Source: a virus (Duplodnaviria > Caudoviricetes). Taken from it: a stretch of DNA of 64,000 nt. A model generated the notes under the pieces. The model was given only the letters and a program-made list of their open reading frames with translations, ran no database searches and was not told the DNA's origin. Numbering within the stretch: position 1 is the stretch's first letter; each line of letters opens with the position of its first letter. The stretch lies in the IMG/VR virus record IMGVR_UViG_3300025011_000016; one strand, 5' to 3'. Positions 4,785-64,000 of this stretch are shown one piece after another. Position numbers and translations under genes: made by a program.

Positions 4785-4837
4785 AATTATGTGTTAATAC
4801 GAGACTTATAAATAGTGGCGATAACCAAGCCTGTTAA

Positions 4838-4968
4838 TAATATTTATAAGTTGTAAAAAATCTTTATCGACTAACGTAAATAAAGATTTTCGCCGTTGGT
4901 CGGACGGTTTAAAGAACCTTAAACGGTTAAGTTATTATGGTATCTAACTAATACTACTAACACGACAG
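4838..4968 (+). ncRNA. Orphan TnpB omegaRNA scaffold / element right end without tnpB
   Basis: Near-identical to the 3' ends of both tnpB elements (13519-13649 and 49444-49574, approx.), ending in the same CTAACACGACAG. Confidence 0.8.
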
Positions 4969-8540: not shown

Positions 8541-10630
8541 GTGTTAATGTCAAATGATGATATACGTTCAGTTATATTAGTTGATGAATGGGAACCTGAA
8601 GAAAGGGATGTGATTATCCGACATGATGGAAAACTAGTAATAATACCATTTGACAAAATATTTAACAAGGATAATATAACAAGTTTAAATACTTTTGTTA
8701 TTAAAAAAGAATCATATGTGAAACGTTTGGATCATGTACTGAATAAAGATGGCACTATATCTAAAGGTATATGTCATTATCTAAATTATTTCATTAAGTA
8801 TTATGATTTAGATAATGAGTTATTATTGTCATATATAAAACTCAAATACATTATTGACAATAAGAAAAAGTCTATTAAGTTAATATCTTTCATCAAGATG
8901 TTGTATTCTATTCTGTTTACAGAATCATTAAAGAATAAAATACGACACTTAGTAGAAGACAATTACCATGTTGATGTTACTTCACATAATGGTATTAAAT
9001 ATACCAAATCAATGGAATTTACAAATGAACATGCAAAACTATTAATGATGATCTCAATGAGTATGAAGATAATGGTTCCTATCATATTTCATTTTATCAA
9101 TTCGTCATCTATGTTAAAGGAACCGAATTATATCTTTCAATTTTATGAACGATTGTTCTATATGTATAAATATGATGAAGAGGTTGATATCTATAATAAA
9201 CTATGGGTATCTACATTGGCTAAAGTTAATGTGAATGCTACAAAACATCGAGTTATATGGGACCAGCGAGAAATATTTGGAACAGATCCGTTAATAGAGC
9301 TTGATAAACTATTAAAGGAGAAGATAATTTCTGAAACTATGTTCAAATATACATTTGATAAAAACATTATCAGTTTTAACAGTGTGGTAAAATAATCTAA
9401 TGCCACCTTTTCTTTAACTGACGGGAAGTTCCTTATAGCTTAAACTACTTAATCGTAATAATGTTTAAGATTGGATAATCCGCAGCCAAGATTCTTATAT
9501 AAGAATAAGGTTCAACGACTAGAGTGTGACTCGTAGATCTATAGTTTAGATTGAAATAAGAAAACTCATCTTAATTAAGATGAGAAGATATAGTCTTATA
9601 TCCTATATAACTATAGGGAAGTTCATAAGAGAACTGCATAGATTAACAACCTATGTGAACACGATGCTTAGAAAAACAGCTTGGTTACTTCATACGAGAA
9701 CCTTATGAATTCTCATTAATTGAGTTAAACAATAAAAAAGATCTCGACGGTTTTTTATAGAAGCCGGTTTTCTCTTAACTGACGGGAACTTCCTTATAGC
9801 TTAAACTACTATAAGTAATAATGTTTAAGATTGGACAATCCGCAACCAAGATTCTTAATACAAGAATAAGGTTCAACGACTAGAGTGTGACTCGTAGATT
9901 TATAACTAAATCGAAGTGGAGAAACTTCATAATATTATGAAGAAGATATAGTCTATTATCCTAAAGTAATTTAGGGAAGTTCATAAGAGAACTGTATAGA
10001 GTTATAATCTATATGAATATAAAGTTATCAGGATTAGATAAGCTTGAGATTAACAGTAATAAGATTGATGAATCTTTAATTATATTATCTGGGATTAATA
10101 TAAAGAAAACTATTAAGAGAATTAAGAATAAAATGAAAGTTAAGATCAGTGAAGATGAATTAGAATATTATAAGATCAATCATCACATTAATAAATTTCA
10201 TGTTAGTCTCATATTCTTTTTCTATGCTAGACATTTTGGTAATTATCGAGATCTTAATCTATTAACCCGAAGACAATATTTAACCTTACTAATACTTCTT
10301 AAACGTAAATTACAAATCCAAGGAAATACTTACTTACCCCAGGTTTTAACAAGTAACATTGAAGGTAAATTAAATACTCGTACAATTCAAAATACTAAAT
10401 TCTTAATGAAGATTGAAAATTCTTCTATATATCAATCATTAATGCAAGATAAATTTTCAACTTTAGAAGAATTAAAGAAATCTAATCTAATACTTAATCT
10501 ATTATCAACTATTCTTAATACAACATTTACATGTGTTGATTATGATAATCGAGACAAGTTGGGTACTACATTGGATATTAACTCTGATATGATATCCGAT
10601 GAGTTTCTTAATTTCTTGAATCAATTATAA
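8541..10630 (+). CDS. Putative non-virion RNAP promoter-specificity subunit (AR9 gp226/phiKZ gp68-like); spliced, exons 8541-9388, 9667-9751, 10025-10630 (about 512 aa)
   Basis: Removing two introns gives one continuous frame ...NSVV-LEKQLGYF...KKDLDG-LSGLDKLE...; size and position two genes after the chaperonin match AR9 gp228-gp226 synteny as recalled. Confidence 0.65.
9389..9666 (+). ncRNA. Group I intron (ORF-less)
   Basis: P1 GUGGU/GCCAC with U.G at the 5' splice site; core elements GACGGGAA, AATCCGCAGCC, GTTCAACGACTAGA, AAGATATAGTC; terminal G; P10 UUAGA/UCUAA. Confidence 0.9.
9752..10024 (+). ncRNA. Group I intron (ORF-less)
   Basis: P1 CGGU/GCCG; same core elements as the 9389 intron; terminal G; restores the frame DG-LSG. 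Confidence 0.9.
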
Positions 10631-12191: not shown

Positions 12192-12246
12192 TATATAACA
12201 AAAGACATATAATTATTTTTTTTAATTATATGTCTTTTGTTATATA
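12192..12246. repeat. Perfect 24-bp-arm inverted repeat abutting the tnpB element
   Basis: TATATAACAAAAGACATATAATTA-T-run-TAATTATATGTCTTTTGTTATATA. Confidence 0.75.
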
Positions 12247-13649
12247 GTCTGTGCTTTAAGGAAACTTAGAGAAATAACTTAATCAGTAGTCTTAATAATT
12301 CATTCCTAATAAGATATTATTATACTTATAACAAATAATATAAGAAAGGGGGTGAAGATAAATGATTAAGACTTTTAAAACGAGAATACGACCAACTAAA
12401 GAACAAGAGATATATTTAAACAAATGCTTTGGATATAGAAGATTCATATACAATAATGCTTTAGAATATTTTAATACCCTTTTAGAGCATAATGGTAATA
12501 TTATTGATAAAACATTAAAGAAGTTCTTTGATAAGTTTGATTATATTACTCATATATACTCTAAGAAAGAAAAGGAACCGGGATTTGAATGGACTCAAGA
12601 GTATAATAAGTCAATAAAGAATGAAGTGGCTAGTGATTTTAATATAGCTATTAATAAGTTCTTTAAAGATATTAAAGACAAGAAACGATGTAAATTACAT
12701 TTTAAAAGAAAGATTCATGGAAATGGTTCTTTTAGAATATACAAGACGAATAAAGGTAATGTTAAAATTATTGATAAGAAGTTATTCTCTTTTATTATTA
12801 ATAGAGAATACGGTCACATGCCATTGAAAACTTTTGAAGATATAAGCTTTTTATATCACTATGATATAAAAACAATGACTATTAGTATGAAGAATTTTAA
12901 ATATTATGTATCATTCACTTATGAAATAGATATCCCAAAGCATAAACATAAGAAAAATATGGTAGGTATAGATTTAGGAATACATAATCCAGTAGTTTGT
13001 TTTGATGGAAACGATATCATAAATCCTAAATTTCCGAAGGGAATTATTAAGAAACTAGAGAAGAAAGTTGATAAACTCTCAGTAATAGTTTCTAAAAAGA
13101 AGTATGATAAACGTAACCCATCAAAGAACTATATAAAAGCGAGAACCAAACTTAATGATATTCACGTCAAAATAGTGAATATCAGAATGGATTATATTCA
13201 GAAGGTATCTACATTCTTAGCTAAGACTTATAGAAACGTAATAGTTGATGAGTTTAGTTTTAAAGAGTTATTAACAGAGTCCGATGGTAATACGCGTATA
13301 AATAGAGGTATACACAGAGTTGGTGACTTTATGTTTACACAGGTGTTAAAATATAAATGTCACTTTTATGGTAGTGAATATATTTTAGCATTACCTAATA
13401 GTACCATTACATGCTCTGAATGTAATCATAAACTTAAAACTAAGTTAAAGTTATCTCAAAGAATCTTTAATTGTCCAATATGCGGACATATAGATGGTAG
13501 GGATAACAATGCTTCTATTAATATTTATAAGTCATTTAAAGGATCTTTATTAACTAACGTAAATAGAGATTTCGCCGTTGGTCGGACGGTTTAAAGAACC
13601 TTAACGGTTAAGTTATTGTGGTATCTAACAAGTACTACTAACACGACAG
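12243..13649 (+). mobile_element. Truncated IStron-type element (tnpB + omegaRNA, intron core missing)
   Basis: Similar to the 47917-49574 element from TATAGTCTGTGCTTTAAGG (end of intron S element) to CTAACACGACAG. Confidence 0.85.
12362..13594 (+). CDS. tnpB: TnpB (IS200/IS605-family RNA-guided nuclease)
   Basis: N-terminal KTRIRPTKEQ HTH, GIDLG (RuvC-I), CSEC/CPIC Zn finger, RDNNASINI (RuvC-III). Confidence 0.9.
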   Translation: MIKTFKTRIRPTKEQEIYLNKCFGYRRFIYNNALEYFNTLLEHNGNIIDKTLKKFFDKFDYITHIYSKKEKEPGFEWTQEYNKSIKNEVASDFNIAINKFFKDIKDKKRCKLHFKRKIHGNGSFRIYKTNKGNVKIIDKKLFSFIINREYGHMPLKTFEDISFLYHYDIKTMTISMKNFKYYVSFTYEIDIPKHKHKKNMVGIDLGIHNPVVCFDGNDIINPKFPKGIIKKLEKKVDKLSVIVSKKKYDKRNPSKNYIKARTKLNDIHVKIVNIRMDYIQKVSTFLAKTYRNVIVDEFSFKELLTESDGNTRINRGIHRVGDFMFTQVLKYKCHFYGSEYILALPNSTITCSECNHKLKTKLKLSQRIFNCPICGHIDGRDNNASINIYKSFKGSLLTNVNRDFAVGRTV

Positions 13650-20023: not shown

Positions 20024-23000
20024 ATCATTTTCGAAACGTGTCATCATATATAGTGTATGAACACCCTCATTGGTTGTCTTTCTCATATTACTACCAGCGA
20101 TATTTAGAATATGAGCTTTAGATGTCATAATTTCAATAGCTTCTTTATTAGCTTCTTGACTAAATAAACCCTTTACTGTAACCTGATCCAAAATATTCAT
20201 ATAGATATTTAATCCATACAGTTCTCTTATGAACTTCCCTATATTAATATAGGATATTAGACTATCTCTTCAATAGAATAAATCTATTGTTTTCCCATTT
20301 CGATATATAACTATATCTACGAATTACTTCTAGTCGTTGAACCTTTCTCTTATATAAGAGACTTGGCTGCGGATTGTCCAATCTTCCATTAAAGAAGCTA
20401 TAAGGAGTTTCCCGACAGTTAAGGAAAATACGGCAATACAATGACCGTCGTACATGTAAACTCCATATTTTCATATGGCATGGACTATATCTTCACCGTA
20501 TAATAATAAATTATTAATTAGGTGTCCTGCACTTCCCAACTAACCCACAAATTAGTCAGTACACTACTAACTACTATATAATTATATGATAGTAATTTTC
20601 GTTAGTCTCTACATCTTCTCTAATTAATTTACATATTTTCACATATTGTAATTTTAACATGGGGGTTTTTATTTTGGGTGTATCATTTAGTTTAGACTCT
20701 ATTTTAATCAATATTTCATTACGGGAATTTTTATCACAATAGAATACAAAATATCCTTGAATAATACGTCCAAATCGAACCGCATGAGTTACAGAACTTT
20801 TATTACTATCTATTGAATCAGCAAATGACTTCGCTCCTTGGAATATATGAAATAACCCATCTTTAAATGCAATTATAGGTTTAGATTTATCTCGTTTAGT
20901 TTGTTCAGAATGTCTAAATAATTTTGTACTTTCACTCATCTTATATTTAGACTCACTATTCATAGTTCCACCGACCCCACCTGTTTTCTTATTATATCCA
21001 ATATTAGGATCATTTGCTTTTAAAGTTGATATCCAATATACCTCTTTTTCGTTCATTTCATTTTTAGAGGTGCATGTGTCTATTATACTGCAATCAAAAT
21101 TATTAAATCCATATTCATTAACTATTTTTATAATATGATATAAATTCGATTTCCTATTAAGCTTTTTATACTTATAATCCTTAAGTCGTGAATGTAGATT
21201 TATTGTCTGACCAATATAAATTTTACCATCTATATTATTTCTCAACATATATATTACACCAAAATGTTTTTTCGATTCAATTATTAGATCATCATTATAC
21301 ATAATAACCCCCCTTATTATATATAAGTTAGTATAAAAGTATTTTTTTACAATATATGAATTTCGTAAATCAATTAAAGCTTGACACGGTATTTCCAGCT
21401 ATCCATATTTCAGGACCTTAGGTTCTCTTACGAAGCTTATTCGTCAATGCTTATTTCACTTCTACCGTTAGCATGAGTATTGTGATACCCATACACCGCC
21501 TGTTAAGCGTTCACAGGATTTTTAACTAAGCTATTTCTAGCAAAGGGAGACAACAACTTTTATCTCCGTTTAAACCAGGTAGATATAAATTTGACATACT
21601 CACAGTATCTGCAAATAGAGTGGATATTTCTTCTTTAGGTAAACTAAGATCGATCCTAGGATAATTCGTATAGACTCTATTTCCAATAAACATCGGTATA
21701 GTTTGGTGGGTACTTAGGACTGATATTTTGTTAGGAAAGCTACTGAAATAATCTGAAATAGGATATCTCGTAACGAATACCATTTTATCTGATGTAACAT
21801 CAACTGCCGCTTGATATAAAATATCACACCAAGTTGCCTTCCTTTGTACTAAGGGAGATTCAGTTTCAGGAACCCCTGGTTTATAATCTTTTCCTATAAA
21901 TCGCATATATAATTTCTTCCCATCAGATCTAGGTTCCTCGACGGGAAGTTCAATTGGTGTAAATCTATCGGATACACTAAATATGAATCTATCAATTTGT
22001 TTTTTAAGATATTCTTCGTTGAAATATAATGAGGGATCTTTTAATTTCACATATCCCATGGAACCGTCCGGATTTCTTACAGGATACTTATTACCAACCT
22101 TCTCTAATTCTCTATGGAAGAAATTTTTAACCCAATTTATTATAAATGGTGTAAATAATGAACATGTTTGTGCAAGAGGAATACCAACATGATAAAAATC
22201 TATTTGCATCTCAGATGGTTTATTTGCTTTGAATATAGGTGCAGAAATTCGTTTATTCATATAGAATATAACTCTATACAGTTCTCTCATGAACTTCCCT
22301 AATTTTCATTAGGATACTAGACTATATCTTCAGGAAATTAAGAATTCCTGAACTCCCATTTCAATACAATAATGTATCTAACTCACGGTAAATTAATATA
22401 ACCATATTTCCGTGTGATAGTCGTTGAACCTTATTCTATTAGATAGAATCTTGGCTGCGGATTGTCCAAACTTAAACATTGTTACTTTAAGTGGTTTAAG
22501 TTCTAAGGAGATTCCCGACAATTAAGGAGCTACGTGCAGTAAATCCACACTCCTCGATCCGAAATCAACCGATTTACCCATTAAATTTTTTCTAATTAAT
22601 CCATTCTTCTTTTCTATTCTACCTTTGAGCAAATCATAAATTTCTACTAAGACTTCCTGAACCTTAGCCCTAGTTCCATTAAGTACAAAATCAAAATTAT
22701 TGGAGTTCCTCAACACAGTTGCGAATCTTAATAATTTAGCGTACTTATCATTGATCTCATGATGACTAATCTTACCCTGTGTTGCTGATTGTAAATTAAC
22801 ATCACGATAGAATGCTGGCACTACAATCCAGTACTCAGTAAATAAAGTATCTTTATCATACGATCTCAGCAAGTCAATTCTTTCACTACGTATAGAACTG
22901 GCATTCTTTTCAAAGTTTATTTTTTCCCAATTTTTATATAAGAATTCTAATCCAGTCTCACCAGATTCCTCAGCTTCAACCAATTGTCCATTTTTATCTA

Positions 23001-46592: not shown

Positions 46593-49500
46593 ATGACTAT
46601 ACTACAAAAAGATTACAGTAGTAATTATTCAATAAAAGAATTAGCTATAAATGACATAGCTCCTAAATATTTTGATATGGTTGATATTAATCAATTAAAT
46701 ATTGGAATGTTTGGTTATAGTACAGAAATGATATCCAATACGACTGAAGATACATTTAATGCAGTTTCAATATTCTTGAAAGAAATGTTTCCTAATAAAG
46801 CTATATTACCAGAATCAATTTATAATTATGCATCATTATTTCAATTAGATAATTTATTTGCAACGCCTGCAAGTACGTATATGATGTTATTTATCAATGA
46901 GAAAGATATAGTTAATTTGGGGATAAATAAAGGTTCTTTCTATGAGTTTATATTAGATTCCGATCTAGTAATAGACATTGAAGATAAACGATTTATGTTG
47001 GATTATAATATAGTTATAACAGCCAAACCATATAAGACAGATTATATTTTTACAGCTCAATATAAATTAGATTTTACAAATTCATTGAGTGATGAAAATG
47101 GTCCGTATATATTAAAAGCTAAAAGAATAAATTATACTGGGAATAAATATTTAGGTTTATTTGTTAAGGTTAGACAATTAAGTAAAACATCTATAAGTGA
47201 ACAAGTATTCACTAATGATAAAATTAACTTTCCTACATTCTCACTTAATTTTGTAGATCAATTAGCAAATTTTGAAATATATTATAAGTCACCAGATTCA
47301 TCTGATTTTATTCAACTGAAAAAAAGAGTTGTCAATACACCGGCTATAGATACTCCATTCTGTTATTATACCGTTAAAAATCAAAATGAAATTGTTATCA
47401 GTTTCTCAACACTCAGTAAATACTTTCAACCAAAATTTAATTCGGAATTTAAAATAGACCTGTATACAACGACTGGAAGTGCTGGTAATTTTCCTGCATA
47501 TACAGGTACTGAAGTAAATGTTATTCCTAAATCTGAAATATATACGTATAATAATGGTATTGTCATATTTGCTATACCACAGTCTGATAGTGTAGGTGGG
47601 TCTGATTATTTAGACATTGAAGAATTAAGATCGATTGTAGTTGAAAAATTCTCTACTGTTGATTCATATACTAATGAGAATGATTTACAAGTATATTTCA
47701 CTAATTTTAAATATAGATATGGTAATGAGATATTATTTATAAAAAAAAGAGATGACGCATTTGAAAGATTATTTTCATCATTTGCGTTACTGAAAGATGA
47801 GAATAATGATATTTATCACACTAACACATTACATGCAATTATTATACCAAGTGAATTCGATACCATATATATTCAAAATAAGTTACTAGTTTTAAAACCA
47901 GGACATCTTTTTAGATTCTAATATGAGTCTCGTTGCATAGTAATATGCAATTGCAACTACTTTAATTGCGGGAAACTCCTTATAGCTTAAACTGATATAA
48001 ATATAAACAAAGTTTAAGATTGGACAATCTGCAGCCAAAGATCTATTTATAGATTTAGGTTCAACGACTAGAACGTAAAGTTCGTAGGGCTCAAGTGAGT
48101 GGGTGAGAATCCCTTAAATCGAAATGGGTAGCCCCAGTATAACAACGTTATAATGGGTGAAGATATAGTCTGTGCTTTAAGGAAACTTAGAGAAATAACT
48201 TAACCGTAAGTCTTACTAATTCATTCCTAATAAAATATTATTATGGGTATAACAAATAATATAAGAAAGGAGGTGAATAAAAAAAATGATTAAGACTTTT
48301 AAAACAAGAATACGACCGACTAAAGAACAAGAAGTATATTTAAATAAATGCTTTGGATATAGACGATTTATATATAATAATACCTTAGAGTATTTTAATA
48401 AGATCCTAGAATTCAATGGTAATATTATTGATAAGGATTTAAAGAAGTTCTTCGATAAATTTGATTTTATTACTCATATATATTCTAAGAAAGAAAAAGA
48501 ACCGGGATTTGAATGGACTAAAGAATATAATAAAACTGTAAAGAATGAAGTGGCTAGTGATTTTAATATAACTGTCAACAAGTTCTTTAAAGATATTAAA
48601 AATAAGAAACGGTGTAAACTTCATTTTAAAAGAAAGATCCATGGTAATGGATCATTCCGAATATACAATAAGAATAAAGGTAACGTTAAAATTATTGACA
48701 AAAACAAATTCTCTTTTATTATTAATAGAGAATATGGTCATATGTCATTGAAAACTTTTGAAGATATAAGTTTCTTATATCAATATGAAATAAAAACAAT
48801 GACTATTAGTATGAAGAATTTTAAATATTATGTATCATTTACATATGAGTTAGATGTCCCAAAGCATACTCATACGAAAAACATAGTGGGTGTAGATCTA
48901 GGAATACTTAATCCGGTAGTTTGTTTTGATGGAAAAGATATCATAAATCCTAAATTCCCAAAGGGAATTATTAAGAAACTAGAGAAGAAAACCGATAAAC
49001 TTTCAACGATAGTTTCTAAAAAGAAGTATGATAAGTACGATCCATCGAAAAACTATATAAAAGCGAGAACCAAGCTTAATGATATTTATATTAAAATAGT
49101 GAATATCAGAATGGATTATATTCAGAAGGTTTCAACCTTCTTAGCTAAGACTTATAGAAACGTAGTAGTCGATGAGTTTAGTTTTAAAGAATTACTTACA
49201 GAATCTGATGGTATTAAGCGTATTAATAGGGGTATTCATAGAGTTGGTGCCTTTACGTTTACACAAGTGTTAAAATATAAATGCTACTTTTACGGTAGCG
49301 AATATATTTTAGCGTTACCTAATACTACTAACACATGCTCTGAATGTAACCATAAACTTAAAACTAAGTTAAAGTTATCTCAAAGAATCTTTAATTGTCC
49401 AATATGCGGGCATATAGATGACAGAGATAATAATGCGGCTATTAATATTTATAAGTCGTTTAAAGGATCTTTATTAACTAACGTAAATAAAGATTTCGCC

Positions 49501-50917
49501 GTTGGTCGGACGGTTTAAAGAACCTTAAACGGTTAAGTTATTGTGGTATCTAACGAATACTACTAACACGACAGATAAGGTAGATACCAATGCCGTTGAG
49601 TTAATTCCTATCCTGACTATTAAGGATGATATTGGTGTATTAACTGATGACTATATATTCACAAATTTATTTCTAGTTACAGTTAGTAAATCTCCAGGGA
49701 TTATTGGTTACTATATTAATTCAATTGATGATAAATTGTCTCTAGATTACGAGTATGTGAATTCAGATTCCATAGTACAATTCATATGTAATAACATCAA
49801 TATATATAGGAATGCAATTGCAGGTGAGGATGTATACAAGATTACAGTCGCATTAACTCCAACCTTAGATGACGGTGAAGTAATGGCAACTAAAGTTGCC
49901 AATATTATTACAGACTTAGGAATATTAAAGATAAAAATAATGGTGGAAGATAATGGAGTGGAGATTTGCTATTTAGATACAATAATGACAGATTTCGATG
50001 AATTAACGAATATATATACATTTGAAGCAACTTTGAGTACTACTGATTACATGACTTTCGACCAATATATGCAAGTTATGAATATTAATAATACTATCGA
50101 TGGGATTATTTTAGTCAATACTTTAATACCTATGTATAATTGTAAATTAAATGTTTATGCTTTCTATAAGTATAGTGAACTTGACGAAGAGGGAAATCTA
50201 TATAAAATACCCCATATATATGATCATATTGCTGAATTACAACCTTATACTTTAACAAATAAATATTCAACAGTAGATAAAAAAGTTAATTTCATAAGTC
50301 CTCTTAATATCTTAAGAAGTATGGTAAACTTCACATCCGCTAATAATGTTGATGGGTATGATGTTACCATCAGTGCAGTTCCATTTGTATCAGCACCTAT
50401 GATGAAAGATCCAATTAAGTATAATTCTTTTATGAAAACTATATTGATTCAGTATGAATATATGCAAAATGCATTATCTAAAGTCACTAATAATTATGGT
50501 ATAGATATGAAATTTTATAATACTTATGGGAGATCAAATAATTTTATTGCAGGTGATCTAGGGGTTCAACTAGATAATGTCAATACTAGAATATATATTA
50601 GAGTTAAACCTAGCGTTGGTTCAGATGTCGATGATTTAATTCTATCATTAAAAGTATTCATCAAGAAATTTATTGAAAGTATAAATGCTTTAGGTTCAAA
50701 TGGGATTTATATATCCAATTTAATTACTAGTGTAGAAACAAATTTTTCCACCGTTGAATATATGAGGTTTGGTAATCTTAATGATTACGATTCTTCGGTT
50801 CAAATAATAGAGAACCGAACTCCCGATATAACATCATTGTCTAAGATTGATAGACAAAATTATGTGCCTGAATATCTAACAATTAGTTTAGACGATATTA
50901 TTATTGATCTATTGTAG
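46593..50917 (+). CDS. Baseplate wedge-like protein, spliced; exons 46593-47916 and 49575-50917 (888 aa)
   Basis: T + AT joins to give ...PGHLFR-Y-KVDTNAVEL...; TTGSAGNF motif of gp6-like wedge proteins. Confidence 0.75.
47917..49574 (+). mobile_element. IStron: group I intron carrying tnpB and omegaRNA, no tnpA
   Basis: P1 AGAU/GUCU; core GCGGGAA, CAATCTGCAGCC, GTTCAACGACTAGA, AAGATATAGTC; tnpB inserted after S; terminal G of ...ACGACAG. Confidence 0.9.
48286..49518 (+). CDS. tnpB: TnpB (IStron-encoded)
   Basis: Highly similar to 12362-13594; GVDLG, Zn finger, DRDNNAAINI. Confidence 0.9.
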   Translation: MIKTFKTRIRPTKEQEVYLNKCFGYRRFIYNNTLEYFNKILEFNGNIIDKDLKKFFDKFDFITHIYSKKEKEPGFEWTKEYNKTVKNEVASDFNITVNKFFKDIKNKKRCKLHFKRKIHGNGSFRIYNKNKGNVKIIDKNKFSFIINREYGHMSLKTFEDISFLYQYEIKTMTISMKNFKYYVSFTYELDVPKHTHTKNIVGVDLGILNPVVCFDGKDIINPKFPKGIIKKLEKKTDKLSTIVSKKKYDKYDPSKNYIKARTKLNDIYIKIVNIRMDYIQKVSTFLAKTYRNVVVDEFSFKELLTESDGIKRINRGIHRVGAFTFTQVLKYKCYFYGSEYILALPNTTNTCSECNHKLKTKLKLSQRIFNCPICGHIDDRDNNAAINIYKSFKGSLLTNVNKDFAVGRTV

Positions 50918-55067: not shown

Positions 55068-58000
55068 TTAAGTTATTCTACCTCTAGCAATAGTTTTGGC
55101 CACTTCATAGTTTCTAGATTCTTTATCCTCTTTCTTAGTCCCCATTCCCATAAAAGGATTTATACTAGTACTAGTTTGTCCTGGAGCAATAATAATATTA
55201 TTTTGTGAAGTATTTCCAGATGTTGGAGGTTGATTATTTGATACATCAACTTGAATTTTCATATTTGAAAGACTACGTATACCATCAGTTGTATTACCAG
55301 TATTCGATGCTATTGATTGTAAGACATGTATAGCTTCAGATAATAACTCATCACTAAAGCTACCTGTATTTGATGCTTGTTGATTATTACTCATATATGA
55401 TCTTACTGCAGGAGAACTTCCTGATGAGAAACTTGGGAATGACAAATTATTCATAACTGTGCCGTTATCTGGATTAGATGTGAGTTTGCTTGTTATAGAG
55501 TCAGTTAATTCTCCGAAACCACCAGGTACATGTTGTGCCCCATATCCACCTTGTTCTGGGTCCCAATCAGATAAGTCTGAGTATAATCCAGACATCCTGC
55601 CTGAATATATGCCAGAATGTTTACCCCAATAACTCTTTGCTTTAAATTCATTATATAAATGATCAAATTCAGATTTACCAGTTTGAGATGTTTTTGAATA
55701 TGCTGACATAAATGGACTTATATTAGCAGGTCCAGTATTTGCAAAATCTCCTAAGAATACTATTGATCTAGGATCTGCTATTTTCTTAGGAACTACTCCA
55801 TATTTATATACTTGAGATAAATTTGTATCTCTAACATGATTCATAATCATGTCGTCTTCAACTTGTTTAGTAATACCATAATTGCTAGTTAAGAAATTTT
55901 GCAATCTAGTTTGTTCCGAATTAGACCAAGGAGAATTACTATTCCAATTAACTTTATTAGCAAAATAATTAGCTTCACTGTTACCAGGTAATTTTGCCGC
56001 CATATTTTGCATAAGTTGTTTAGCGTATCCACCTCTCCATTGTAAAGCTCCAATGGATGGTGATATAGATTGTCCTGTACTTCCATTTATGTCATTCTTA
56101 GCAAAAGTATAGTTTCCATTAGATTCATGCTTAATAGTTTCTTCAGCAGTTTTCTTCAATATAGCATCTTGTAAATTCTTTGGTATAAAATCAATACCTG
56201 CTGTACTAGATGGTGCTTGTATAGGTGAACCCGTATCATCAGTTCCCCAAGATAATTGATCATTTCTTCCAAAGAAGGCATTCTCAGTATATATACCCAT
56301 TAACTCACTCAATTTACTAAATAAATCTTCACCTGAAAATGGTCCTTCTTTTTTTGCAACAGATGGGCTAGAACTCGGTGTATCTGTACTTGGTGTAGGG
56401 ATAGGTCCACCACCATATTTAAAGCCCCATGCTTGTTTAGCCTCATTCATTACAGTGTTCATATTATATGAATGTGAATATTTTTCTCCTCTTGGGTCGT
56501 TAATCATAACCTTATTAGGACCATCATTACCAACAGCTACTACAAAATGTCCGGCTGAAGTAAATGGTGAATTTTCTGAAGCTGACGATCCGGGTCGAAT
56601 TCCAGATAATACTATAGGCACACCATTATCTAACCAATTTCTAACAGTTCCTTTATTTGAAGATGGATCGATCTGTGTTGTTTGCATACTAAACTTCTTT
56701 GCTATATCATTAAAATATCCCCAACTAGTTCCTTGATTCGTACTATACCCATCTTCTTGTGCGATCTTAGCCATTTGAACTGGAGTATATTGCTTACCAG
56801 TTAATTGAGATACAACCATCGCGGCTGATGTTGGCCCACAACCACGTTTTTCCATTGCTGGATTAGGTGAGTGTCCTTTTCCTGGACTATAATCATAAGG
56901 AACATTAGCCCAACGATCATCGGCTTGGGAATAATATGAGAAGTTATTAACAGTCGATGGGGCTTCTCCAAAACCACCATTAAATCCACCCATACCACCT
57001 CGACGAACATTAGATGTAGTATTGGTACTGAAGTTCGCATCTTTAAGCTCAAGATCGGCATTTCCATTGAAGAGGTTTACAACCGAATTCCAACCATTCT
57101 TTACTTTATCTCCAATTTTACCAAAAGTATTTTTCATACCATCAGCAATATTTTTAAAGAATGATTTTATTGGTGTAATAGCATCATCCACATATCCTGA
57201 GATAACAACCCAAGTATCTCTAAAAGCCTTAACTATAGGTTCTGTTTTCTCATTAATATCCTTTTTAATTCCGGCCACTTTTTCATCAACAATTGACGTC
57301 ATAACGGACCAAGTATCTCTAAATGACCCTGAAATCAAATCGACTTTTTCACCAACATCTTTTTTAATCTCAGCCACTTTTTCATCAACAATTGACGTCA
57401 TAACAGCCCAAGTATCTCTAAATGATCCAGTTATCGAATCTAGTTTTGTGCTCGTTTCAGTACTAATCTTTTCACTGGTCTTACCTAAATTAATACCTAA
57501 TGTATCTATAAAGTTATTTGCCGTAACTCCAATCCCATATATAGTTTTTGCAGTCTTTTCAGAATCTAGTATACCCAATGATGCACTTTCCAGCCCACCC
57601 GATATTCCTGAGGCTATTCTCATTCCAGTAGATATAGTTCCATTACCCGTAACATTGAGATTCTTTTTAACGGTATCGTTATTTATAAAATCACCAACTA
57701 TTGGCATATTATTGGCGACCCATTTAGTATTGTTAACAATACCATTGCCTACATAACTAGCTCCCTGAGAAATCTTCCCACCAACGTAACTAGCTCCATT
57801 TTTAATTCCACCGACAACTTTATCGGCAATAGTTGGATTTGTTAAGGCATTATATTCATCTGGAGTTAAATTTTTATTATTTTCGATATTATATTCTTCC
57901 AATTCCTTTTTAAAGGCACCTTGATTATTTTCTAATTTAATTCCTTTATCGTCACCAGCCCATGCTGCATATAAATAATTAGCAATCATTTCCAGAAAGC

Positions 58001-61000
58001 CTGTTCCTCCAGTTATTGATGAGGCTATCGTATTTCCTTGGGTAGCACTGACAAATACATCGTTTGCTATATTGATCAAGAAGAACCAACTAAAATTTAA
58101 CATCCCCTTCATAGCAGATGAAATACTCTTCATCATATAATCAGTCTGCTCTGGGTGTACTCTGAACAAATGAGACGCCTCAAACCACCCAGTTACAAGA
58201 CCATATGTTACCCAAGTAGCATCAAGTAAGCCTAATGTTGCTGCAGATCCTGCTAAACGAGCAGTACCAGCTAACCATTTAGGAAGTGTCTTTCCAAGAA
58301 CCTCTTTCGTGAATACCTTAGTTACAGTTGCGCTTATTGCCCCAAAACCTTTTTTAGCTTGTGGGCATTTCTCCCCAAGATATGCAAATAATTTTGACAT
58401 CATTTCTTGAATAGTTTTTTGAATTTTAGCTATCTGTGACCCTTTAACATCATTGGCCATTTTAGTCGAATCCTCTATAACAGCTAGACCGGATTCTTTT
58501 ACAACAGAAGAGGGTTTCCCTAATATTTTAGTCAATACTTTTTTACCTGTATTAACTATTGGATTTACTACTTTGGTGCCAGTTTTAATCATTTTACGCC
58601 CACCAGCTACCATAGGTTCCACAAGTTTCTTATTTAAAAGTCTGGTGCCATATACGAGTCCTTTACCAACATGCTCGGCAGTATCCATATCTGTTATCGG
58701 ATTACCATAGGTATCACTGTGATCACCATCGGTTGGGGAATCAGTTTTACCTATAAACCAATTAAATAACTTCTTTAAATATGGTAATGCCATTAATGCG
58801 GCTGTTGTGATTAAACCAGCCTTACCAAATATTCCTAACCAATCTGCTCGTTGGCCTTTAATAAGGCCAGCAATATTGCTTAATAAAGATACCTCTTGAA
58901 TCTGACTATTCTGAGTAAATTCTCTATCCTCTCTGGCTTGATTTTGAGCTATAGTAAAAGAAGCGGTTCTTCTGGATACTTGTTTCTGGTCAGCATTCAA
59001 CTCAGCTTCTTGTGCAGCTTCTTCAGCTCTGGCAGCATCCTCTTTATCTTCTTTAGTATCAAAAATATTCATTGCACCGAGCATTGAGTTTGTAATTTGA
59101 TCCATCCCATTAGATATAGAACGGAAGGGAAGTACTTTTCCTCTTGTTGATGAACCTGAGTTTGGAGATGGAGTGGTTGATACTAATCTAACTGGTAATG
59201 TATCCGATGAAACTATTCGTACTGGCATTGGAGTTAAATTCCCTGAATGGGTTACTCCATCAGTTCCTGTAGGAGCTAAAGTTCTTGCACTTCCATTAAT
59301 CTGCATTACCCTAACTTCTTTAACTAAATCTAAAGAACCCCCGGCTATAATAACCTCACTTTTCCACCCAGCCATTTTACCAATAGAACCAGCTAAGAAC
59401 TTAATAGGTGATGTTACAATTTCAAATAAACTATCACCAATAGAAAGTAATTTCTGACCTACTGATGTGACTACATTAAATGTGAAATCTGTTATAGCAC
59501 TTGCCGATTTAAACATAAAGTCAGTTACCATAGGAACCATTTTGAATAGTGCACCTACAGTACCAGATATAGCTTTACCAACAGCTTCACCAATACCTTT
59601 TGTTATCATACCTAAACCTTGTCCAACACCGAGAAGTATTTCTCCAAGGCCTTTACCGAAACCGATTAGTGAATGTGATACTAAACCTAATGTACCACTG
59701 AATAATTTAGCGACACCTTTTAATGATTCACCAATGGCAGGTCCCACAATCTTTAATGATTCAGCGACCGTTTGTAATGCAAATCCAACAGTTTTTACTA
59801 TAGCTAATGGTAATTTAACTAAAGCCAATAATGTTTCTTTACCAATATTTAATACTTCTTTACTAAAATTCCACATCCCCTTAGCTATATCGACAGGAAT
59901 TTTTACAATTGCTTTACCTACACTTACAATTGTAGTACCAAGAGTTGATAATTTATCTCCAACATATCTAATTGGTTTCATCAATAATTCTTTAGCTGTG
60001 TCAAAAGGTTTATATAAAGCTCTTTTTATTTTACCTAAGAAACCAATTCTATCCCTATTAGAACTACCGGATAGATCTTCATCTCCTATACCACTTTGTT
60101 GTTGTAATAATTTTCTTATTTTAAATACATTACTACCAACACCATCTAATTGACCTTTTACTTCTTGAGCAATAATCTTAATATCGCTGGCCATATCATT
60201 CATAATTTGAGGTTTAAATTCTAATGTAGACGTCTTACCAGATTTACTAACTTGAGGTGCTAAAGTAGTTGTATTTGTTTTATTTGAAGAATTATCCATT
60301 ATAGGAGTTGGTCCATTATCCTGTTGAGAGTTATTAATTGGTGGAACTAATTGAAGAGTGGGTCTTGATTGAGTTGGTCCACTTTGAGTTGTTGGTATAT
60401 TAGAACTTTTCGATTGCCTATAATCATCTAAACTAACAACGGGAAATGTAGACTTATTTGATTGATTTGGATTTGACATATTGTTAGCTTCAGCTATTCT
60501 AGTATTAGCCGATTCAATAGGATTTCCTTCACTACCATGAGTTCTATATACATCAACTATTACGTTACCATTTCTATCAAAATTATCATAATCGTTATCA
60601 GAACCAACACCACGTCTTCTATTAAGTTTATCCCACTTAGCATCCAATATAGCTTTCTTCTCATTATATTTAGCTGCAGTATCGGATGCTCGTTTAGCTT
60701 TAGCAATCTCTAATTCCTTAGCATAAGGTGCTCCTTCAGAACTATTCCTAGCATCTTCAATAGCTTGTCTATTGAATATACTGTCTTTAACTGAACCCCA
60801 GAAACCTCTTTTCTTACGATAAGCCGCAACACCTTGCTCTTTATGTCGAGCCATTAATCCTTCAGATAAACCTTCCATAGCTCTAAGTGGTGCTGACAAT
60901 AATGGCCCAAATATTCTACCAATACCATTAAGAAGTGTTGATAAGAAACTTTTCAAAGGTTTCATAACATTATCATTCATAAATTGTCCAAAAGGTTTAC

Positions 61001-64000
61001 CAACAAATTTCTCAAAGGAAGTCCCTAAGAATGTTTGAAAGTTTTTCCAACCCTGAACAAAAGTATCTTTTAAGCTCCTAATCATAAGAGTCATTTCATG
61101 TTTTAAAGGATCTATTGCATTTAAGAATGGATTAGCAATACTCTCCCCAAACCATTTTTGTATATTAAGGTTTATCTCTCCGAATTTTAATTTTAAAGGA
61201 GCTAATACTTCTAACTTTGTCCAGTTAATAAATTTCCCGAAAAGTCCTCCTTTTCTTAATTGTGTATCAGCATCGAATTCACCAAACAAAGCCTTTCTCC
61301 ATTTATCTGAAGATAATGCAATACCTGCGGCGGCACCTAATAATGCTCCACCAATAGGACCACCAGGTAATAGCATCGCACCCATTAAACCAAATTTACT
61401 TGTAATCATACCAAGTGCGGCTCCACCAGCCGCACCAGCTCCCATATTACCAAATAAATTTTTATTCTTTCCTTTTCTAAATTGACCAAATAATTTGTCT
61501 ACAACTCCACCTTGTCTTTTTCCATCAGCATCTTTCTCACCAAACATCGCCTTTTGAAAACGTTCGGATCGTACTAATAAAGATGTGCCAACCCCTAATA
61601 TAGCCCCACCGACAATTCCTCCAGGTAAGAAAAATGATGGTAATAAGCCGAAGCTAGTTAATAATGATTTAGCGGCTCCCATACTAGCTCCACCAATTAT
61701 ACCAACCTTATTCTTCTTTAAAAAATCAGTTGTTTTTTTACTAACAAAACCACCAATTCGAGTTCCATTAATATCCTTAGGACCAAACAACCAATTATTA
61801 AATCTATCTGATTGGGATAAGAATCCCATAGTAGTCGCGACTACAGCCCCACCAATAGGGCCACCTGGTAATAATAACGAGCCTAGTAAACCTAATTTAC
61901 CTCCAAATAATAAACCAGCAGTTCCACCTAATAAACCATAAGCTAATGACTTTGGTGCCTTCTTTTTAATATTTTTAAATAGTTCATCCATGACAATATG
62001 ATTCTGATTATCTTTACCACCAATTCGTTTTGGTCCAAACATAGCATCACTAAAGTTTTGGAAACCTTTACCAATACTACTAACAATTCCAGAAAAAACA
62101 CCTTTAGTATTATTAGTAGGATCATTAGTATCTTTCTTGCCAAATAAATATTCTTTTAAATTTCCTTTAAAGTCTTTAAACATCGATTTCAATTCACCGA
62201 AAACACTAGAATTATTATCTGAGAATTTATCACCAGCTCTATTAGTATAACCTTTACCAGTGAAATAATATTTAGCCCCATCCCAGATATCCATTAATGA
62301 ATTTGCAGTTTGGGAGAATACACCATTTTCTCTTGCCCCATTAGCTCCACCCGGATCTCCAAATAGATAATTGGCTAATTTAGAGAGTTTACCTTTAGCT
62401 GTATTAACCATTTCACTATTTTTCAATTTAGTTATAAATCCATCTTTTCCAAAGAGAGCATCTTTAATCGGGAGAAATATCTCTGTCTTCATCCATGTAG
62501 AAAATGTTTCAAATTTAGTTTTCATTAATGATAAAGTCTTAGAAAAAAATGAAGTGTTCTCATCAGTTCCTTGTTTACCAAACACCATTTCATACATGGT
62601 TAAATCTATCTTCTTAAATACACCTGATAATAATTTAACTGGTGCCTGAAATAAATCATTGACTTTCTCTCTAATCATATTATATCTTTCTTGAGCGTCA
62701 CCTTTAAAGAATTTACCTGCCCATTTGAATATATTATTACCTTGATTTGGTCCAGGAACTTTATCTCTTTCACTCACATATGTTCCAATTTGAGCTTGAA
62801 AATCTCCTTCTCCTAGACCCGAATCTGAAAGTGAATCTATTGTTCTTTGACCATGATTCATTCTCTGACCAATTTGAGTTTCAGTTGATGGTGTGATTGT
62901 ATTATTCTTTCGATTTCTTTCTTTTATAATATCTTCTCTTTGTTTCATTCTCTTTAATCCACTACTACTATGAGTCGGTGGAACGAATGGTGAAAGAGGA
63001 TCTGTATTAGTTGACTGATTTGGAAATACTATTATGCCTTTAAGTAATATTTTTTTAATATCACGTAAATAATCTAAACTGTTAAGATCATATGCATCGG
63101 ATGGCAATAACCCTCCGCCTTTTTTTAGTTTAAACTTACTTGGATCTTTAGTATCGCGAGTAAGATGACCATCTATTCCAGCTTCATTAAATATATTATT
63201 AGCATTATTCTTTAAAGGATTCTCCTCGGCATCCATCATGAATCTGTTTTGTTCTCTACGGGCATTAATTACGCCCATACCAAACATCTGTGATTGCATA
63301 TTCTTAGGTAGAGATAGAATCAATTGTCTAAAGAATTTCTGCTGATCCCCTTTAAATTTAAATACATCAGCTAGTTCATCAACGGCATTACCATTTTTAT
63401 CTTTAGTACTAGTTGGATTTACAAGATAATTAGATTTTGCAAGGTTTATAAAGAAACTATCTATATCTTTATAAAATTTATTACGTTCCACACCATCTTC
63501 AATATAAAATGAATTAGCTCTATCTTTTATTTCACTAATAGCATCACTAAATTGATTTAGAACAGTTCTTTCTTTCTGATCATCAAAATCTTTTTTCATT
63601 TGATAAACTGATCCAAATGTTCCCTTATCATAATCGAAACCCATCTCTTCTTTACCTGTTAAAGCAGAGAGTATTTTTCTTAAATATGTTGGTATAACAT
63701 CAGTTATTGATTTCTTAACATACCCATCAAAAGGAACTGGCCCTTTATTAAACTTAGACATATCTACAGATGATTTTGTTTTAACATTAGCTCCAAACAC
63801 CTGACCAAATAATTGCATTATAGGATTATCAGATTTATAAGCTAGTCTGTTAATTTTCATTAGCATGGCTGGGAAAAATCCCTGAAAGGACTTATCCATA
63901 TCTGTCATCGCTGACTTAAGCATATTTGGTATTAAAGCTGTAACTATTTTAGTTGAAATAAAACTTAAGGGTGAGGCCGCAAGGAATTTTAAAGTATCTT
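55068..64000 (-). CDS. Tape measure protein with C39-like peptidase and lysozyme-like domains (5'-partial)
   Basis: Frame open to the window end; Gly/Ala-rich helical repeats; YYSQADDRW..GCGPTSAAMV..GHFVV; KHESNG..IGALQW. Confidence 0.85.
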   Translation of the reverse strand, partial: DTLKFLAASPLSFISTKIVTALIPNMLKSAMTDMDKSFQGFFPAMLMKINRLAYKSDNPIMQLFGQVFGANVKTKSSVDMSKFNKGPVPFDGYVKKSITDVIPTYLRKILSALTGKEEMGFDYDKGTFGSVYQMKKDFDDQKERTVLNQFSDAISEIKDRANSFYIEDGVERNKFYKDIDSFFINLAKSNYLVNPTSTKDKNGNAVDELADVFKFKGDQQKFFRQLILSLPKNMQSQMFGMGVINARREQNRFMMDAEENPLKNNANNIFNEAGIDGHLTRDTKDPSKFKLKKGGGLLPSDAYDLNSLDYLRDIKKILLKGIIVFPNQSTNTDPLSPFVPPTHSSSGLKRMKQREDIIKERNRKNNTITPSTETQIGQRMNHGQRTIDSLSDSGLGEGDFQAQIGTYVSERDKVPGPNQGNNIFKWAGKFFKGDAQERYNMIREKVNDLFQAPVKLLSGVFKKIDLTMYEMVFGKQGTDENTSFFSKTLSLMKTKFETFSTWMKTEIFLPIKDALFGKDGFITKLKNSEMVNTAKGKLSKLANYLFGDPGGANGARENGVFSQTANSLMDIWDGAKYYFTGKGYTNRAGDKFSDNNSSVFGELKSMFKDFKGNLKEYLFGKKDTNDPTNNTKGVFSGIVSSIGKGFQNFSDAMFGPKRIGGKDNQNHIVMDELFKNIKKKAPKSLAYGLLGGTAGLLFGGKLGLLGSLLLPGGPIGGAVVATTMGFLSQSDRFNNWLFGPKDINGTRIGGFVSKKTTDFLKKNKVGIIGGASMGAAKSLLTSFGLLPSFFLPGGIVGGAILGVGTSLLVRSERFQKAMFGEKDADGKRQGGVVDKLFGQFRKGKNKNLFGNMGAGAAGGAALGMITSKFGLMGAMLLPGGPIGGALLGAAAGIALSSDKWRKALFGEFDADTQLRKGGLFGKFINWTKLEVLAPLKLKFGEINLNIQKWFGESIANPFLNAIDPLKHEMTLMIRSLKDTFVQGWKNFQTFLGTSFEKFVGKPFGQFMNDNVMKPLKSFLSTLLNGIGRIFGPLLSAPLRAMEGLSEGLMARHKEQGVAAYRKKRGFWGSVKDSIFNRQAIEDARNSSEGAPYAKELEIAKAKRASDTAAKYNEKKAILDAKWDKLNRRRGVGSDNDYDNFDRNGNVIVDVYRTHGSEGNPIESANTRIAEANNMSNPNQSNKSTFPVVSLDDYRQSKSSNIPTTQSGPTQSRPTLQLVPPINNSQQDNGPTPIMDNSSNKTNTTTLAPQVSKSGKTSTLEFKPQIMNDMASDIKIIAQEVKGQLDGVGSNVFKIRKLLQQQSGIGDEDLSGSSNRDRIGFLGKIKRALYKPFDTAKELLMKPIRYVGDKLSTLGTTIVSVGKAIVKIPVDIAKGMWNFSKEVLNIGKETLLALVKLPLAIVKTVGFALQTVAESLKIVGPAIGESLKGVAKLFSGTLGLVSHSLIGFGKGLGEILLGVGQGLGMITKGIGEAVGKAISGTVGALFKMVPMVTDFMFKSASAITDFTFNVVTSVGQKLLSIGDSLFEIVTSPIKFLAGSIGKMAGWKSEVIIAGGSLDLVKEVRVMQINGSARTLAPTGTDGVTHSGNLTPMPVRIVSSDTLPVRLVSTTPSPNSGSSTRGKVLPFRSISNGMDQITNSMLGAMNIFDTKEDKEDAARAEEAAQEAELNADQKQVSRRTASFTIAQNQAREDREFTQNSQIQEVSLLSNIAGLIKGQRADWLGIFGKAGLITTAALMALPYLKKLFNWFIGKTDSPTDGDHSDTYGNPITDMDTAEHVGKGLVYGTRLLNKKLVEPMVAGGRKMIKTGTKVVNPIVNTGKKVLTKILGKPSSVVKESGLAVIEDSTKMANDVKGSQIAKIQKTIQEMMSKLFAYLGEKCPQAKKGFGAISATVTKVFTKEVLGKTLPKWLAGTARLAGSAATLGLLDATWVTYGLVTGWFEASHLFRVHPEQTDYMMKSISSAMKGMLNFSWFFLINIANDVFVSATQGNTIASSITGGTGFLEMIANYLYAAWAGDDKGIKLENNQGAFKKELEEYNIENNKNLTPDEYNALTNPTIADKVVGGIKNGASYVGGKISQGASYVGNGIVNNTKWVANNMPIVGDFINNDTVKKNLNVTGNGTISTGMRIASGISGGLESASLGILDSEKTAKTIYGIGVTANNFIDTLGINLGKTSEKISTETSTKLDSITGSFRDTWAVMTSIVDEKVAEIKKDVGEKVDLISGSFRDTWSVMTSIVDEKVAGIKKDINEKTEPIVKAFRDTWVVISGYVDDAITPIKSFFKNIADGMKNTFGKIGDKVKNGWNSVVNLFNGNADLELKDANFSTNTTSNVRRGGMGGFNGGFGEAPSTVNNFSYYSQADDRWANVPYDYSPGKGHSPNPAMEKRGCGPTSAAMVVSQLTGKQYTPVQMAKIAQEDGYSTNQGTSWGYFNDIAKKFSMQTTQIDPSSNKGTVRNWLDNGVPIVLSGIRPGSSASENSPFTSAGHFVVAVGNDGPNKVMINDPRGEKYSHSYNMNTVMNEAKQAWGFKYGGGPIPTPSTDTPSSSPSVAKKEGPFSGEDLFSKLSELMGIYTENAFFGRNDQLSWGTDDTGSPIQAPSSTAGIDFIPKNLQDAILKKTAEETIKHESNGNYTFAKNDINGSTGQSISPSIGALQWRGGYAKQLMQNMAAKLPGNSEANYFANKVNWNSNSPWSNSEQTRLQNFLTSNYGITKQVEDDMIMNHVRDTNLSQVYKYGVVPKKIADPRSIVFLGDFANTGPANISPFMSAYSKTSQTGKSEFDHLYNEFKAKSYWGKHSGIYSGRMSGLYSDLSDWDPEQGGYGAQHVPGGFGELTDSITSKLTSNPDNGTVMNNLSFPSFSSGSSPAVRSYMSNNQQASNTGSFSDELLSEAIHVLQSIASNTGNTTDGIRSLSNMKIQVDVSNNQPPTSGNTSQNNIIIAPGQTSTSINPFMGMGTKKEDKESRNYEVAKTIARGRIT
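57200..57430 (-). repeat. 99-bp (33-aa) tandem repeat in the TMP
   Basis: SFRDTW(A/S)VMTSIVDEKVA.IKKD repeated 2-3 times. Confidence 0.8.

Follow-up and report, generated by a model that had tools for sequence, protein, structure and literature searches.

A transposase-less IStron in the baseplate gene of an AR9-like jumbo phage and its proposed homing through TnpB

Can a group I intron that carries tnpB, and no transposase gene (tnpA), spread by using TnpB as an RNA-guided homing nuclease? RNA-guided homing of IStrons devoid of the transposase TnpA is an open question posed in a 2026 review, which considered that such elements could spread by intron homing if their TnpB is active (PMC13565253). 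It is raised here by an element inserted in a baseplate gene within a stretch of 64,000 nucleotides (hereafter, the window, whose positions are used throughout) of the IMG/VR virus record IMGVR_UViG_3300025011_000016. The virus is an uncultured AR9-like jumbo phage from groundwater, with a 248.6-kb genome. IStrons are the sole known case of one RNA choosing between intron and guide RNA, and a jumbo phage with five intact tnpB copies, insertions in essential genes and no transposase seen is a natural place to address the question; phage co-infection, moreover, provides both an intron-free target and recombination machinery. The best explanation for the locus, which we regard as reasonably probable, is that of a TnpA-less group A (IS200/IS605-derived) IStron, one of a multi-copy family, that would home via TnpB.

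The whole element occupies positions 47917..49574 (1,658 nt) of the + strand, on which all its parts and both exons are encoded. The ribozyme, tnpB and a 3' tail were all present, and the terminus of the tail was exactly the 3' splice site. A local Rfam scan by E-value matched the full general group I model (RF00028, positions 1-253; the only intron model applied) at 47907-48192 with 78.8 bits and an E-value of 7.8e-20, a match missed by the default-filter scan of the whole window. The ribozyme core, from P1 to P9, spans 47917..48192 and includes the internal guide sequence GAGTCT at 47925-47930 and, at 48173-48192, the P9 GAAA hairpin with a "proximal" G. In the Rfam alignment, the 5' splice site follows T47916, which is the U of the U.G wobble pair of P1, so the intron starts at 47917. 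The tnpB gene (48286..49518, 410 amino acids) begins 93 nt after P9, and fifty-six bases separate its stop codon from G49574, the 3' end of the element, where seven related copies lose their similarity precisely. The original prediction had proposed a complete group I ribozyme joined to tnpB and an element end coincident with the 3' splice-site G; the first was confirmed by the RF00028 match and three Pfam TnpB domains, the second by the copy boundaries and the gap-free tyrosine junction described below. We consider this anatomy, with ribozyme, tnpB and an element end at the 3' splice site, as practically certain.

The two open reading frames (ORFs) flanking the element, 46593-47921 and 49541-50917, matched in tblastn searches the N- and C-terminal halves of a single homologous gene that is uninterrupted in AR9 gp211 (904 amino acids), Machias_182, LPJP1_221 and phiR1-37 g207. 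When unspliced, the frame of exon 1 (46593..47916) hits a TAA at 47919-47921, 5 nt inside the intron. Joining 47916 to 49575, the first base of exon 2 (49575..50917), produced an 889-amino-acid protein that aligned without gaps to the four homologues, with exon 2 corresponding to the C-terminal half of AR9 gp211. The codon formed at the junction, T|AT, encodes a tyrosine that was invariant across the five sequences, i.e., the fusion and its four homologues. Judging from this alignment, it is highly probable that splicing at T47916|A49575 restores the host ORF.

Two other readings of the junction were tried and rejected. Use of the proximal G48192 as 3' splice site would make the junction read T|AA, a stop codon. 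The other reading made ORF 49541-50917 an independent gene starting at a TTG; it has no ribosome-binding site, however, the conserved tail accounts for its initial 34 nt, and the homologues run continuously across the junction.

Neither Pfam (tried to E <= 10) nor PHROGs, in which exon 1 falls within phrog_18960, provided a function for the host gene. An alignment with 39 homologues from a representative search was used to produce an AlphaFold (AF2) model of the N-terminal half, which reached a predicted local distance difference test (pLDDT) value of 83. The best structural matches of this model were all baseplate wedge proteins, including two chains of the phiKZ baseplate (9xqs; E 2e-20 and 1e-18), chains of the P1 and KP1 baseplates, and T4 gp6 (5iv5). 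Because of these predicted-structure matches, the earlier assignment of the host as a baseplate gene holds, its product being a predicted gp6-like wedge protein that shares a family with AR9 gp211. ORF 45120, which heads the block to which the baseplate gene belongs, is preceded by a late promoter motif of the AR9 type.

The protein encoded within the intron showed the Pfam domains HTH_OrfB_IS605, OrfB_IS605 and Cas12f1-like_TNB, matched phrog_506 (E 1.5e-72) and aligned end to end with the TnpB of ISDra2 (E 4e-23), with its RuvC residues D204, D296/E297 and D381 aligned to D191, E278 and D361 of the latter. A Pfam search of the intron ORF for homing endonuclease domains of the LAGLIDADG, GIY-YIG, HNH, His-Cys and EDxHD types detected none, TnpB domains being the only ones found. 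All five tnpB copies of the phage had retained these catalytic residues together with the four cysteines of the zinc finger, and their dN/dS values ranged from 0.11 to 0.23 at dS of 0.37-0.58; TnpB is under purifying selection. Its lineage appears isolated, with identities of no more than 35% to anything outside the present phage population among 5.8 billion clusters. The closest annotated phage TnpB loci, those of Staphylococcus phages Machias and LY01 and Enterococcus phage EFP01 (31-32% identity), showed no Rfam intron match at E <= 0.01.

According to the alignment of the five copies, the ribosome-binding site of tnpB, AAGGAGGTG (48267..48275), is included in a nearly invariant 28-nt block, TAACAAATAATATAAGAAAGGAGGTGAA (48250-48277), whose conservation exceeds what ribosome binding needs. 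The reverse strand of this block reads TATATTAT, the core of an early-type promoter box, without the usual 5' context of the box. Regarding a promoter for tnpB itself, none is proposed: an upstream AACA...TA has the wrong spacing, and the baseplate copy contains no early-type TATATTAT box in the sense direction.

Conservation was higher still at the 3' tail. Between the baseplate copy and a 5'-truncated sister copy (c2, described below), identity reached 95-97% over the final 120 nt and 88-97% over the final 240 nt, versus about 87% in the ORF, and dropped to 65% just beyond 49574. It climbs from about 49332, and the 5' limit of the putative omega-RNA is uncertain; the probable scaffold was placed at 49440..49574, overlapping the 3' end of tnpB and ending in ...ACGACAG. 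In the helicase copy, a one-base deletion shortens the ORF by 14 codons and the nucleotides downstream remain conserved despite the changed frame, which places the constraint on the tail at the level of the nucleic acid rather than of the protein. Folding of the tail was more stable than that of shuffled sequence (z -2.7), and its consensus fold showed four predicted stem-loops, with one compensatory pair and several single changes compatible with G.U pairing. No Rfam model matched the tail, which from these features is a probable omega-RNA scaffold.

A perfect 14-bp inverted repeat (I6), the sole one in the element with 100% complementarity over at least 14 nt, encloses tnpB. Its 5' arm (48194..48207), in a P9.1-like position, begins two bases past the P9 hairpin, and its 3' arm (49529..49542) ends 32 nt ahead of the 3' splice site; in the ligase copy, a C-to-T change in the helix retains a G.U pair. 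Such a helix would constitute an ORF-bearing P9.1-type extension returning the distant splice site to the core. The 3' arm overlaps two of the stems predicted in the tail, SL-C and SL-D, and therefore the intron fold and the guide-RNA fold would be mutually exclusive, a conflict between intron and guide that is visible in the predicted pairings.

The element is one of a family that comprises, in this phage, at least five tnpB copies, besides a solo tail and a likely tnpB-less mini copy. Three of the tnpB copies were located in the 118-kb record, and the others were detected by protein search and contig look-ups, which also recovered the full version of a copy that is cut short in the record. 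Further copies lie in a gene for a PIF1-like helicase and in an NAD-ligase gene, the latter identified by Pfam. In addition, contig depth on the element was 5-8 times that of its flanks.

The boundaries of these copies define the element to the base. On the left, the 5' splice site was the precise point from which the four splicing copies became similar; their first exons end in TTTAGAT, AATTGAT, TTATGAT and TATAGAT, corresponding to the consensus WWGAT. The pentanucleotides are TAGAT for the baseplate copy and TTGAT, ATGAT and TAGAT for its sisters, with a U at position -1 in all four and an exact TTGAT ahead of the helicase copy. In the four copies, the internal guide sequence was GAGTCT wherever exon position -4 was A and GAGTCA wherever it was T, a perfect covariation, and in-frame exon fusions were obtained for the three sister splicing copies as well. 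On the right, all seven copies terminate in ...TAACACGACAG, sharing the final ...ACGACAG, and then diverge; contigs of further copies, one of them from a second study, likewise diverged from the window at 49574.

Two of the copies are truncated, with the identical exact 3' end and different 5' ends. The first, c2 (12241..13649, + strand), is intergenic and keeps J8/7-P9, tnpB (89% amino acid identity) and the tail. It starts inside J8/7 (ATATAGTCT...) and lies between convergent genes, a terminator-like hairpin immediately preceding it, and its 3' flank, GATGGAGATATTGT, matches the conserved J8/7 motif of the introns, GATGAAGATATAGTCT, at 13 of 16 positions. Despite its inability to splice, this copy has retained an intact tnpB that is under selection. 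The second, c4 (4835..4968, + strand), is also intergenic and consists only of the last ~135 nt, 92% identical and with the same ...ACGACAG end; with no tnpB nearby, it is a candidate for a stand-alone omega-RNA scaffold or for a remnant.

Among the contigs from two DNA runs, one joined 48267 to 49467, skipping the tnpB ORF, at about single-copy depth, which suggests the tnpB-less mini copy; this would lie elsewhere than in the 118-kb record. Another contig (ERZ909591 k127_43395, 3,952 bp) was a mosaic in which the helicase exon 1 and a helicase-type 5' part were followed by a baseplate-type 3' part and the baseplate exon 2. The crossover lies ~550 nt into the element, where there is no long identical run, the longest shared one (52 nt) being elsewhere; the contig may be an artefact of assembly that joined two copies, or it may reflect genuine recombination between them. 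In further searches, a related-locus search and conserved-tail patterns in viral contigs detected no further element, a scan of metagenome contigs returned only a duplicate of c2, and megablast of the locus against phages gave only short stretches of ribozyme core.

How would such an element move? In the logic published for IS605 TnpB and IStrons, the scaffold ends at the right end of the element and the guide is the flank read through from it, whereas the target-adjacent motif (TAM) is the motif to the left of the element, so that TAM and target are adjacent only in the element-free joint; TTGAT is the TAM of ISDra2 and of the C. difficile IStrons (CdiIStrons) (10.1101/2023.11.20.567912). The mechanism put forward in the original prediction is this published one, and it fits the sequence. 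The proposed guide, the first 20 nt of exon 2, was found at 49575..49594, directly 3' of the element end, and TTTAGAT does occupy the TAM position (47910-47916), its last five bases, TAGAT (47912..47916), being also the exon strand of P1.

Following this logic, the late pre-mRNA of the baseplate wedge gene would contain the element, whose 5' ribozyme would fold while the 14-bp helix closed the tnpB loop and carried G49574 to the core. Self-splicing would then link ...TTTAGAT to ATAAGG... and restore the gene. Unspliced transcripts would be translated into TnpB from its own ribosome-binding site and would provide the omega-RNA, in which their last ~110-135 nt would be extended by ~16-20 nt from the start of exon 2. 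The TnpB-RNA complex would recognise TAGAT followed by ATAAGGTAGATACC..., a pairing present only in the intron-free allele, in which the exon-2 target beside the TAM would be ATAAGGTAGATACCAATGCC; in the donor, the target follows ACGACAG instead, which would protect that allele. Once TnpB had cut the intron-free allele, recombinational repair from an intron-bearing genome would copy the element in, resulting in homing, or in retention after loss, in co-infection or among replicating genomes. A search of the 118 kb for off-targets of six flanks gave the own site as the sole exact match, the others having 2 or 3 mismatches. For RNA-guided cutting of the intron-free allele, our analysis tips only slightly in favour.

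Several points weigh against this proposal. Splicing itself, omega-RNA formation, the TAM, cleavage and homing are all deduced from sequence. The WWGAT motif is equally explained by P1 pairing alone, and three of the four splicing sites are one base off TTGAT. Only one compensatory pair was found among six tail sequences, whose variation is too low for a real covariation test. In addition, homing does not account for the arrival of the family in four unrelated genes in the absence of TnpA; a trans-acting TnpA, reverse splicing or break-induced ectopic copying could each have been the route. Finally, the search for tnpA called for in the original prediction covered 118,479 bases, only about 64% of the genome, and found neither a Y1 nor a serine transposase there. 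Regarding traces of the alternative alleles, patterns for the intron-less junction and for the empty site of c2 gave no match in viral contigs, and no contig from four DNA runs joined 47916 to 49575, a result uninformative on absence since contigs drop rare variants.

The transposase search bears directly on a different explanation, in which the element would be an IS605-type IStron that is non-autonomous and depends for its movement on a trans-acting TnpA, encoded in the part of the phage genome outside the search or in an IS200/IS605 element of the host. TnpB would then only recut the vacated donor site and thereby restore the copy, and homing between phages would be incidental. The four insertions in unrelated genes, all 3' of a TTGAT-like pentanucleotide, correspond to the target preference of IS200/IS605 TnpA (PMC4227781), IStrons of C. 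difficile are also TnpA-less and have been termed non-autonomous, and about 36% of the genome was left uncovered by the search. However, the 118 kb yielded no transposase, and the element contains neither tnpA, as the original prediction had also claimed, nor a remnant of it, with a P9-tnpB spacing of just 93 nt. Its 5' (P2) and 3' (SL-D) hairpins are dissimilar, unlike the ends usually bound by TnpA, and the copies are 85-90% identical, with dS of about 0.5; therefore, the insertions are old and not ongoing. We consider movement by TnpA in trans unlikely. A rather less remote explanation, although still not a probable one, is that the nuclease chiefly serves the phage: TnpB, with guides from several essential genes, would cut and exclude intron-free relatives or their markers in co-infection, homing being a by-product. 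This would agree with the location of copies in genes that relatives cannot lose (baseplate, helicase and ligase), with the integrity of TnpB in the five copies, including the intergenic and non-splicing c2, with the own flank of the solo tail, and with the reported precedent of the PhiPA3 intron endonuclease (PMC11620839). On the other side, neither pattern scans of viral contigs nor the related-locus search found a competitor genome with matching targets, and sequence alone cannot separate this function from selfish homing.

The truncated copies and the mosaic contig invite two further readings. In one of them, TnpB would not cut DNA here, being instead a passenger, a chaperone or maturase of the intron RNA, or a regulator, and reverse splicing, or else recombination among its members, would account for the spread of the family. 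The joining of a helicase 5' part to a baseplate 3' part, and the truncation of c2 and c4, do suggest recombination among copies, and the guide-complementary GAT at each site also suits reverse splicing. Nevertheless, the catalytic triad and the zinc finger are intact in all five copies, with the low dN/dS values given above, whereas nuclease-dead derivatives of TnpB (TldR-type proteins) normally lose such residues; moreover, the tail is conserved up to the precise point at which a guide would start. A non-cutting TnpB seems to us very improbable. In the other reading, TnpB would have ceased to be a transposon accessory and would be the only engine of mobility and exclusion of an intron family served by seven or more genes for guide RNAs (five of them linked to tnpB, plus the solo tail and the tnpB-less mini copy), each using its own flank as guide, in a dispersed set resembling a CRISPR array that targets the alleles lacking the element in competing phages. 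Nuclease-triggered repair, seeding new sites without a transposase, would then have left its footprints in the mosaic contig and in the truncated copies c2 and c4. This is a distinctly unlikely extension. Homing of a TnpA-less IStron through TnpB is the explanation that we retain.

Other features of the genome were observed alongside the family. In the 118-kb record, Rfam detected group I introns at 16 places, with 11 of the matches exceeding the family cut-off and some standing in tandem, for instance at 9368-9618 and 9743-9976 (+ strand) and at 20237-20453 and 22297-22575 (- strand), a load unusually high even among AR9-like phages. Of 101 ORFs, 27 had the AR9 late motif AACA-N6-TA in the 70 nt preceding them (2-8 for other spacings; about 6% expected), with examples just ahead of 45120 and 50970, and the phage probably uses an AR9-like promoter code for a non-virion RNA polymerase. 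A single ORF of 2,951 amino acids occupies 55068-63923 (- strand).

When compared with known systems, the element can be classed from its sequence as a group A (IS200/IS605-type) IStron because of its U at -1, its TTGAT-like site, its CAG terminus and its ISDra2-like TnpB. As in this group, the ribozyme is at the 5' end, tnpB lies downstream on the same strand and the ends coincide in silico with the splice sites. The 3' terminus is ACAG in all copies, versus the TCAG of the 2014 survey, so that CAG and the terminal G are common to both and the T is not. Neither tnpA nor a remnant of it was present in the element or in the 118 kb; published members without ORF A exist (PMC4227781), and thus tnpA is not required for membership.

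The closest relatives in organisation are CdISt1 and the CdiIStrons of C. difficile (PMC4227781; 10.1101/2023.11.20.567912), which share with the present element a 5' group I ribozyme, an IS200/IS605-type tnpB, a right end that is the 3' splice site, a TTGAT-like insertion site with U at -1, the presence of several copies in unrelated genes and the absence of a full-length tnpA. They differ in their location in a clostridial chromosome instead of an AR9-like jumbo phage; the present element has no tnpA fragment, is preceded by WWGAT and not by a strict TTGAT, and ends in ACAG and not in TCAG, in addition to the low identity of its TnpB to anything outside this phage population. ISDra2 TnpB (PDB 8bf8, 8exa, 8h1j) shares with it full-length homology, the catalytic positions and a TTGAT-type motif by the left end, but overall identity is low, and ISDra2 has a tnpA and no intron.

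The novelty that the original prediction attributed to a phage-borne, transposase-free IStron was overstated. The 2014 survey already included IStrons in the C. botulinum phages c-st and D-1873 (CbISt3 and CbISt4) and an "ORF B only" IStron, CsISt1 (PMC4227781), and all eight of the C. difficile IStrons examined lacked a full-length TnpA (10.1101/2023.11.20.567912). Nevertheless, CsISt1, CbISt3 and CbISt4 belong to group B (IS607-type), being inserted after GG, with G at -1 and a CGG end, and c-st is a plasmid-like prophage, unlike the virulent-type jumbo phage analysed here. Homing of TnpA-less IStrons by TnpB had likewise already been proposed (PMC13565253). In CboIStron (10.1101/2023.11.20.567912; PMC13521648), the 3' splice site also lies at the junction between scaffold and guide, and splicing and guide-RNA formation are mutually exclusive. 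There, the conflict between folds was shown experimentally, whereas here it is read from the overlap between the arm of the long-range helix and the predicted tail stems; CboIStron, moreover, belongs to the IS607 family, with a TGGG TAM and a serine TnpA, and its activities are experimental, the present element being known from its sequence.

Homing nucleases of related phages offer a functional parallel. The HNH enzyme AR9 g190 (PMC5312081) and the PhiPA3 intron endonuclease (PMC11620839) are also nucleases whose genes reside in group I introns of essential phage genes, with an effect expected on co-infecting relatives. These enzymes recognise their target through protein, whereas here recognition would be through RNA, and their genes are in an internal loop, whereas tnpB is placed after P9. 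In the literature collection searched, no description of IStrons in jumbo or virulent phages was found. The element adds no new principle to those already published for IStrons; what is new is its setting in a jumbo phage and the extent of the family to which it belongs.

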